Shown here in pieces: positions 13,827 through 14,410 of a stretch of DNA of 64,000 bases. The position numbers were made by a program, and so were the translations under genes. The stretch is from Escherichia phage PhiR41_1. The stretch is from sequence record PV340561; one strand, 5' to 3'. The notes beneath the pieces were generated by a model that saw nothing but the letters and a program-made list of their open reading frames with translations, had not been told where the DNA came from and made no database searches. Numbering within the stretch: the stretch's first letter is position 1; every line of letters begins with the position of its first letter.

Positions 13827-14246
13827 TAGATAAGTACAAACTATTCATAAAGTGAATTGTAAGTGCTAAGATCTGATTGTTTCCAGTCGTAGACTGGAGG
13901 CTCGACCTGATGGGTGGGGGTAAGCGTCACTGGCGTCAGGTTTAAAAAGCTCACTACCAGCGTAGAACCGGTGCCGTTTAGGTGTCGGGGAAGGGGGAAC
14001 CAAAGTGAGCAGAGACAAGGGTCACTTTATGATTGTCGAGTCTGGGGTGTTTCGAGAGGTTGAATCCAGTACTCCCCTTCATAAAGTGTGGGAAGATCTC
14101 GGTTCTGGGGTGCTGTCATCCATAACTTCCCAAGTCTAAGCTGGCAGTAGACTTAGACCATAACTTTTCAGGTTATGAAACGACCAGGTTGGTGAGGAAT
14201 TTTATACTCACCTCCCTGGGAGAGTATTACCTGAAAAGACAACCTC

Positions 14247-14370
14247 TCACTTCGTTCGAGGTGAACTTCACTCACTTCGTTCGTTCAGTTCAGGTTTATA
14301 AAAACCTGTTCTGGGAAGTAATTTGTTTATTTTAATAATTATTAACACGCACGCGTGTGCGCACGCGCGA
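14247..14370. repeat. direct repeats (CTCACTTCGTTCG x2), AT-rich tract and alternating Pu-Py GC tract
   Basis: Seen in the ORF-free 13830-14400 region upstream of the RNase H gene; approximate coordinates. Confidence 0.4.
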
Positions 14371-14410
14371 GGAAAAAAAAATCGGCGCGGCGCTTGATTC
14401 AGGAGTTTAT

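Follow-up and report, generated by a model that had tools for sequence, protein, structure and literature searches.

A widespread structured-RNA locus of SSU5/pHCM2-type phage-plasmids as a possible RNA-dependent replication site

RNA II of ColE1 is a promoter-driven, highly folded noncoding RNA (ncRNA) of ~450-550 nt with G-rich segments, and the DNA downstream carries an A-run followed by GC-rich sequence (GGAAAAA/CGCC). A comparable arrangement is found in mycobacteriophages that live as extrachromosomal prophages, where a noncoding transcribed region of 400-500 bp is required for prophage replication; these RNA-origin phages lack repA, and the RNA adjoins parABS (Wetzel et al. 2020, PMC7157519). 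Here we describe a locus at positions 13830-14400 of a 64,000-nucleotide stretch of Escherichia phage PhiR41_1 (record PV340561), called the window below, between a gene for a 76-aa protein and rnhA, the gene for RNase HI. The sequence evidence firmly points to a new, widespread and unannotated structured-RNA locus on the + strand. We propose, with a probability of roughly 45%, that this locus is an RNA-dependent origin or a replication-control site. By analogy it would work most like ColE1 RNA II or the mycobacteriophage RNA origins, without being a member of any defined family: it matches nothing in Rfam, and neither an RNA I-like antisense promoter nor iterons were found. Among the defining features of described systems, it appears to possess only the mini-hairpin sequence and the combination of an AT block and a dyad that characterizes lambda-type origins.

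The window belongs to an E. coli SSU5/pHCM2-type phage-plasmid, since its region 13400-14900 is ~98% identical to Escherichia phage CMS-2020a and to phage Cyrano (= pLF82), 81% identical to Salmonella phage SSU5 and 77% identical to Klebsiella SSU5-type phage-plasmids. The genes around 13830-14400 form a replication and nucleotide-metabolism block on the + strand, with ribonucleotide reductase, thymidylate synthase, dihydrofolate reductase, a DnaQ-like exonuclease, Dam methylase and the 76-aa gene before the locus and RNase HI after it. A first-pass annotation of the same DNA had described the region as poor in open reading frames (ORFs) and had proposed an origin of replication or primer-processing region or, alternatively, a structured ncRNA. 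As it had stated, there is no + strand ORF of 60 aa or more inside the region, the internal ORFs being of 49, 44, 30 and 48 aa. The sole longer + strand frame is a spurious GTG upstream extension of rnhA from 14357, and a 75-aa ORF on the minus strand (14268-14495) is not conserved. No tRNA or tmRNA was found by a dedicated scan.

The region is more conserved than the genes that flank it, across seven enterobacterial genera. The identity of 13900-14380 between genera is 88-93%, and it is the flanking coding sequence that lowers the mean over 1.5 kb to 77-81%. An alignment of ten genomes shows hardly any variation in 14080-14325, against drift at third codon positions in the neighbouring gene. 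When the 585-bp intergenic stretch was compared with PLSDB by BLAST, 687 plasmids matched, from Klebsiella, Escherichia, Enterobacter, Salmonella, Citrobacter, Cronobacter, Shigella, Kluyvera, Raoultella and Buttiauxella. The stretch was also present in 232 of 5426 complete E. coli genomes, nearly always on plasmids of ~110 kb that have no annotation at the site. Distant homologues of the upstream protein were traced and a degenerate core pattern was scanned in public collections, which gave 103 distinct copies (loci are designated by L numbers). These include a lineage of ~69% identity (L081, L083, L107, L112, L145 and L148) and L085 at ~80%. L086 (Logan SRR8137545) was excluded, as nearly every C is changed to T, consistent with an assembly of bisulfite-converted reads.

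The locus opens with a sigma-70 promoter signature on the + strand (13844-13872), made up of a -35 element TTCATA (13844-13849), a 17-bp spacer with a TG at 13864-13865, and a -10 element TAAGAT (13867-13872). It was identified by reading the alignments, and a simple consensus scan did not list it. The -35 (TTTAnn) and the -10 (TAnnAT, mostly with the extended TG) are 17 bp apart in every lineage, including the one of 69% identity, and the spacer diverges. Transcription from this promoter would yield a structured RNA of ~450 nt from ~13879 to ~14332, its 5' end being placed by the promoter and its 3' end by three hairpins followed by a U-rich tail, which a simple terminator scan did not call.

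The fold of this predicted RNA is well supported by covariation. RNAalifold applied to 33 representatives gave 101 pairs, 42 of them with compensatory changes. In a larger model of 147 pairs, 94.8% paired, 48 pairs and 226 cells were changed on both sides, compared with 27.8 +/- 2.9 pairs and 45 cells after column shuffles and with 9-17 pairs when the partners were slid by 1-3 columns; the double changes come mostly from one divergent clade, with few events per pair, yet they cover ~40 pairs in nine helices. When both strands were folded, the energies were -252 against -221 kcal/mol; the minimum free energy z-score is -4.6. In the predicted pairs, G-U and A-C cells stand at 485:50 on the + strand and at 172:135 on the - strand, and this excess of G-U over A-C indicates that the + strand is the folded one. 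The alternative of a structured ncRNA in the first-pass annotation is therefore strongly supported by the conserved promoter, the extensive covariation, a pseudoknot and the G-U asymmetry of the + strand. The search with covariance models that it had suggested did not identify a known family. Rfam 15 gave no hits in the whole 64-kb window at gathering thresholds, and at permissive thresholds only chance-level hits were obtained for 13700-14500 (E values of at least 0.07, far below gathering). The RNA is annotated in none of the records examined, and no description of it was found in the searchable literature.

The RNA can be divided into several domains, all on the + strand. The first transcribed element would be a 5' hairpin (13881-13899), in which four of the six pairs of helix 1 have double changes and pairing is kept as the sequence varies by lineage (CCAGT/ACTGG, CCGGA/TCCGG, GGCAGA/TCTGCC and TTTCGA/TCGAAA). 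It is followed by a 5' domain (13904-14013) with helices 13904-13919/13925-13942, 13949-13955/14004-14010 and 13968-13975/13981-13988; helices 3, 4 and 7 of this domain have 7, 3 and 3 pairs with double changes. The domain also contains the conserved G-runs GGGTGGGGG and GGGGAAGGGGG and has a GC skew of +0.28. The central domain (14023-14158) is built on a long hairpin, 14023-14046/14065-14088 with its apex at 14051-14064, and on further hairpins at 14089-14095/14126-14132 (inner 14108-14121) and 14134-14143/14148-14158. Its helices 10, 12, 14 and 15 are 96-100% paired and have 10, 3, 1 and 4 pairs with double changes, respectively.

A pseudoknot follows at 14159-14238, where the loop (14164-14172) of the hairpin 14159-14163/14173-14177 pairs with 14230-14238, and a hairpin, 14181-14196/14207-14222, sits between the two halves. 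The loop and its partner read CUUUUCAGG/CCUGAAAAG in the main lineage, CUUUUAGG/CCUAAAAG in L085 (a paired deletion) and UUUCUGG/CCAGAAA in L107 and L081 (an A/U swap). In the local stem, CAUAA/UUAUG changes to CAUAG/CUAUG, and helix 17 has three pairs with double changes. The predicted pseudoknot is thus well supported, as the pairing survives both the L085 deletion and the L081/L107 swap. After the two hairpins that hold the repeat described below, the RNA would finish with a last hairpin, CAGGTTT-ATAA-AAACCTG, the conserved TTCTGGGAAGTAA and the U-rich tail (14291-14332), a candidate 3' end or terminator. The stem of this hairpin covaries as well (CAGGT/ACCTG to CAGGG/CCCTG in Cronobacter), and TTCTGGG is kept in all lineages.

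Similar to ColE1 RNA II, the locus would thus produce a promoter-driven, highly folded ncRNA of this size class in a replicon, with G-rich segments in the RNA and an A-run followed by GC-rich DNA downstream, here with an RNase H gene next to it as well. It differs in that it has no sequence or Rfam similarity to RNA II, that the RNA seems to end before the A-run and the GC tract, that the host replicon also has a Rep-protein origin (IncFIB) and that rnhA is dispensable for keeping the element. As for an antisense RNA I of the ColE1 type, the sole promoter-like site on the minus strand (13885 to 13856) points away from the RNA, and no conserved -10-like element was seen in the alignments on the minus strand within the RNA. 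With the mycobacteriophage RNA origins the locus shares its noncoding nature, a length of 400-500 bp and a place in a plasmid-like phage, transcription in our case being predicted from the promoter. The hosts are unrelated, there is no homology, and the SSU5-type element has a Rep replicon; the comparison is one of architecture.

The direct repeat that had been noted, CTCACTTCGTTCG, is indeed present in exactly two copies, at 14246-14258 and 14271-14283, and a third exact copy is absent from the 64-kb window. The chance of a 13-nt exact repeat within 570 nt is ~0.002 as a rough estimate. These direct repeats are hairpin caps and not iterons, and the two copies are instances of one cap with the periodic form (TCAC)n-TNC-(GTTC)n. 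In the type 1 hairpin, CCTC[TCACTTCGTTC]GAGG (14243-14261, + strand), the first copy makes up the 11-nt loop plus the closing pairs. The second copy lies in the type 2 hairpin (14263-14291, + strand), in which a GAACT/AGTTC stem is capped by TCACTCACTTCGTTCGTTC (14268-14286). The two GTTCAG copies that had also been listed form a tandem pair at 14283-14293.

On the opposite DNA strand the cap reads (GAAC)n-GNA-(GTGA)n and can form very stable mini-hairpins, in which a C[GNA]G triloop with C-G and A-T as closing pairs stacks on tandem G.A/A.G in the favourable Y-GA-R context, and the complements of 14249-14255 and 14274-14280 both read ACGAAGT, with the CGAAG core of such a triloop. Similar to the mini-hairpin d(GCGNAGC), both repeat complements have a CGAAG core closed by C-G with tandem G.A/A.G flanks; the closing pairs here are A-T/C-G and not G-C/C-G, and the likeness was read from the sequence. 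Mini-hairpin DNA has been placed at the G4 primase site (oric), at RSF1010 ssiA and at the promoters of the N4 virion RNA polymerase, and it is far more stable as DNA than as RNA (2026 review, PMC13037366). The extended (GAAC)n/(GTGA)n motif was found in no paper by a full-text sequence search. Pairing of the cap loop with rRNA or tRNA was also considered, and no match with up to three mismatches was found in an E. coli rrn operon; a supposed resemblance of the loop motif to 23S rRNA was therefore dropped.

Both hairpin types occur far beyond the SSU5-type elements. An exact scan with the type 1 pattern CCTCTCACTNCGTTCGAGG matched at least 120 viral contigs, and among the matches listed there are 12 distinct flank contexts outside SSU5-type elements, most of them with lineage-specific stem extensions. 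In five phage lineages, the type 1 hairpin lies inside a replication-initiator gene, just 3' of iteron-like repeats. In L153 and L159 it is found at about codon 160 of a Phage_rep_O gene, where a short A-rich stretch and iteron-like repeats, three or four in number, precede it. The arrangement in L192 is the same, the initiator there being O-like, and in L153 and L192, where the next gene was checked, a gene for a DnaC-like loader follows the initiator gene. In L164 and L168 the hairpin is within genes matching PHROG 'replication initiation protein' families. The dyad symmetry of ori-lambda has the same position, within the initiator gene after the iterons. Another large group of contigs carries the hairpin in an intergenic region of A/G repeats plus TATATA, and in two other phages it is followed by an intrinsic terminator and is antisense to the neighbouring genes. 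The orientation of the motif relative to its neighbours can be either one. Rfam gave no hits in 11 other phage loci carrying the hairpin, and the non-SSU5 hairpin phages had no BLAST match in an annotated phage collection.

For type 2, an exact scan with the 19-mer TCACTCACTNCGTTCGTTC, which has one N, also matched at least 120 viral contigs; among the matches listed there are 46 distinct contexts, with a locus GC of 0.28-0.64 and contigs of 2-420 kb. The flanks form at least three consecutive Watson-Crick pairs in 18 of these 46 contexts, compared with ~1.6% expected. The TCACTCACTNCGTTCGTTC loci L210-L273 include T4-like contigs of 180 kb, jumbo contigs of 420 kb and one GVMAG, and the 19-mer often follows a terminator or shortly precedes a sigma-70-like promoter. 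L216 and L237 have extended (TCAC)n/(GTTC)n arrays, and L240, L242 and L255 have several copies. Compared with L154 and its relatives, L196, a contig of the large 'AAGAAAG-repeat' phage group, has the hairpin core inverted relative to its flanks at 2235-2253, which looks like a flip across the inverted-repeat stem or an assembly artefact.

The comparison with lambda-type origins can be made on this basis. In five phage lineages the type 1 hairpin stands where such an origin has its dyad, and in the window an AT block (14316-14345) adjoins the hairpins at 14243-14308, so that the AT region and the dyad of such origins are both in place. Unlike a lambda-type origin, the window has neither iterons nor an initiator gene surrounding the element, its parts come in another order, and 350 nt of structured RNA lie before the hairpins. 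The proposal of an origin or primer-processing region in the first-pass annotation has in this way gained indirect support, from a repeat that is a hairpin of lambda-type origins inside the initiator genes of other phages and whose complement is a GNA mini-hairpin of the primase-site type.

The AT-rich block and the GC tract that had been noted downstream were both recovered. The block at 14316-14345 has 28 A/T in 30 positions and is one of three 30-mers in the 64 kb with at least 28/30 A/T. Across lineages its composition is conserved and its sequence and length vary. It could act as a DNA-unwinding element or a terminator tail, or hold the promoter of the gene that follows. It is followed by the tract ACACGCACGCGTGTGCGCACGCGCG, 25 nt of alternating purine-pyrimidine (14345-14369), the conserved CGCGCGAGG (14364-14372), an A9 run (14373-14381) and the GC-rich TCGGCGCGGCGC (14382-14393). 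The tract is unique in the window, with none expected in shuffles; the repeats, the AT block and the GC tract are all beyond chance expectation. All lineages have CGCGCGAGR with an A-rich stretch after it, which in most copies is an A-run. The tract, called Z-DNA-prone in the first-pass annotation, measures 8 to 29 nt, one of 62 sequences having no tract of at least 8 nt, and the A-run 3 to 10 nt, and both are polymorphic even among near-identical E. coli copies. The GC tract behaves as a slippage-prone low-complexity element, unlike a coding sequence or an RNA helix of fixed form. Two unrelated phage types likewise carry an alternating GC tract 3' of the hairpin motif (ACGTGCGCGCACG in L158 and CGCGTGCGTGCGC in L175), which hints at a functional link between tract and hairpin. 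The tract may equally be a GC-rich discriminator or leader of a promoter for the cargo gene.

These observations can be assembled into a tentative model. The sigma-70 promoter would drive a + strand RNA of ~450 nt whose transcription opens or marks the site, the mini-hairpins would be extruded from the template strand and signal priming or primosome assembly, the AT-rich block would melt and RNase H, where it is encoded next door, would trim the RNA-DNA hybrids. Every replication step of this mechanism is a proposal, and the replication started or controlled at the locus would probably be lytic or secondary. We favour an origin or replication-control site because the cap sits in the origins of other phages and its complement has the chemistry of mini-hairpins, and because of the AT block, the setting among replication genes and the mycobacteriophage precedent.

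Several points weigh against this proposal. The carrier plasmids type as IncFIB, a Rep-protein replicon, and since this replicon is already present they could do without a second origin. Neither iterons nor DnaA boxes were found nearby, nor any repeat family beyond two-copy matches, and the alignments showed no conserved antisense promoter from which an RNA I-like regulator could arise. GC skew has no inflection at the site and is uninformative because all genes here point the same way. The hairpins and U-rich tail that seem to close the RNA lie before the AT block, which would be unfavourable for a persistent hybrid of the ColE1 type. The near-invariance of 14080-14325 is greater than known origins require. 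Finally, the stable form of the motif is opposite to the RNA strand, so that the RNA and the hairpins may serve different functions.

The main rival explanation is a trans-acting structured ncRNA with a role outside replication. It might regulate lysis and lysogeny, titrate a host protein as a sponge or decoy, or counter host defence, and the hairpin caps would then be no more than stable structural modules or loops that bind protein. This would suit an RNA with its own promoter, an elaborate conserved fold and a pseudoknot, in an element that is independent of a downstream gene which is sometimes convergent. It is also consistent with the two other phages in which the type 1 hairpin, with a terminator after it and antisense to its flanks, resembles a small RNA gene, and with the accessory or anti-defence-like neighbours (Dam, and a Tad2-like gene in the divergent lineage). 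We nevertheless hold it to be rather unlikely: the loop motif has no match in the E. coli rRNA or tRNA operon, no target or partner was identified, and the association of the motif with origins in five initiator-gene lineages is left unexplained. A second alternative is that the locus is purely a DNA element, an origin, single-strand initiation signal or recombination site with folding single-stranded DNA, and that the RNA is incidental. The thermodynamically favoured form of the repeat is its purine-rich complement, whose C[GNA]G with tandem G.A is far stabler in DNA than in RNA, and the occurrence of the motif in either orientation relative to neighbouring genes and the cargo junction immediately downstream agree with this. 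What makes a DNA-only element improbable is the conserved promoter with its fixed spacing, which is hard to explain without transcription, together with the G-U/A-C asymmetry, which puts the long-range structure on the + strand, the stable mini-hairpins being on the - strand, and a pseudoknotted fold of 450 nt, unusual in a double-stranded DNA replicon.

Two further explanations tie the locus to protein-coding genes. The first is a long 5' leader or a promoter-attenuator region regulating rnhA or other downstream cargo. In its favour, the hairpin and U-rich tail before the gene resemble an attenuator, a cargo promoter could be formed by the AT-rich block and the GC-rich 'discriminator' after it, and the conservation of the backbone reaches to ~25 nt before the rnhA start. 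However, the gene that comes next runs in the opposite direction in the plasmids of Buttiauxella and S. Senftenberg and is betT in Citrobacter, the identity of 87-95% in those cargo-swapped settings is not expected of a leader, and Rfam gave no match to a riboswitch or leader family. We judge a leader quite improbable, and a riboswitch or leader for rnhA in particular was rejected, as the downstream gene is variable and can be convergent. Coding of small proteins, which one record suggests by annotating a coding sequence (CDS) of 44 aa in phage Cyrano, equivalent to 14005-14139, is the least credible explanation and was rejected owing to frameshifts in relatives. Conserved small ORFs filling the region, which the first-pass annotation had named as an outcome that would undo its view, were looked for and no conserved ORF was found: the eight candidate ORFs, taken from either strand and including the Cyrano CDS, are intact in 1-22 of the 33 representatives, and frameshifts or interruptions affect all eight in the Klebsiella and L085 lineages and seven of eight in Buttiauxella, despite conservation of the nucleotide sequence. 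The substitutions follow the paired helices and not codons.

The gene upstream of the locus (13596-13826, + strand) is listed as an ORF for a 76-aa protein without an assigned function. It accompanies the element always, and homologues of its product are found in SSU5-type elements only, down to 58% identity. The protein has no Pfam hit, and its AlphaFold model has three helices (predicted local distance difference test score of 80) with no fold match in the PDB. A Rop-like role was considered and is unsupported, since the three-helix model has no significant PDB match. The gene downstream, rnhA (14411-15004, + strand, ATG at 14411; Pfam RNase_H, E = 1e-44), lies in a variable cargo slot. The phage-plasmid RNase HI has a Lys/Arg-rich N-terminal extension of 39 aa (14411-14527), and the RNase_H domain covers residues 40-178. 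In Buttiauxella p1WJP83, convergent UvrD/AAA genes take the place of rnhA, in a Citrobacter plasmid betT and in S. Senftenberg a convergent hypothetical gene. The homology to these cargo-swapped relatives stops directly 3' of AAAAATCG, at ~14384, and the variable cargo slot, with its backbone/cargo junction, therefore starts there. The position of the locus before rnh, which the first-pass annotation had taken as a clue to function, loses its weight, as the element stays with the upstream gene where other cargo replaces rnhA; by these comparisons rnhA is not an obligatory partner.

The cargo slot and the copies of the locus gave a few additional observations. In the slot from ~14384 (compared in L004, L008 and L009), the UvrD-helicase and AAA ATPase genes of Buttiauxella are defence-like, and in the divergent lineage (L081) the Tad2-like gene is two genes downstream. 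L087 (Buttiauxella gaviniae ATCC 51604, ~4819-5302) is a copy of the RNA locus without the promoter and the 5' domain; its homology begins at the equivalent of 14004, and its 3' domain, 96% identical, is fused to unrelated coding-like sequence. Two annotations in public records are probably errors: CYRAN_81 of Cyrano (3609-3743 of L001), the 44-aa CDS called within the RNA, and SSU5_090 (3846-4610 of L002), an RNase H CDS whose start is placed far upstream, through the length-polymorphic GC tract and the A-run. Elsewhere in the window, 26801-30092 holds a divergent host-like pair, an Mrp/ApbC-type P-loop NTPase (PF10609) and a full-length methionyl-tRNA synthetase, with a higher local GC of 0.52, and at 37192-37710 on the minus strand this E. 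coli phage-plasmid has a gene with a match to FljA, the 'repressor of phase-1 flagellin' family (PF03614, E = 1e-68).

Separate from the RNA locus, and possibly more general as a discovery, is the pan-viral hairpin cap. Taken together, the two would amount to an undescribed large pseudoknotted RNA that acts as or licenses a lytic or secondary origin of SSU5/pHCM2-type elements, and to a cap, (TCAC)n-TNC-(GTTC)n, that marks priming or initiation sites across very different hosts, lambda-type origins included, as an unnoticed generic signal; we put this combined proposal forward as doubtful. As the cap is common to phages of 28% to 64% GC and to lambda-type origins, it could mark phage origins or priming sites by sequence alone, and it provides a natural instance of the mini-hairpin DNA on which chemists work. 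In clinical Enterobacteriaceae, SSU5/pHCM2-type phage-plasmids are frequent and bring resistance and defence cargo with them, and they are present in ~4% of complete E. coli genomes and among many Klebsiella, Salmonella and Enterobacter plasmids. Their replication during lytic growth and the change in their copy number are poorly known. If an RNA locus does start or control replication in these elements, it would offer a handle on their copy number, on their induction and on the cargo hot spot that adjoins it.

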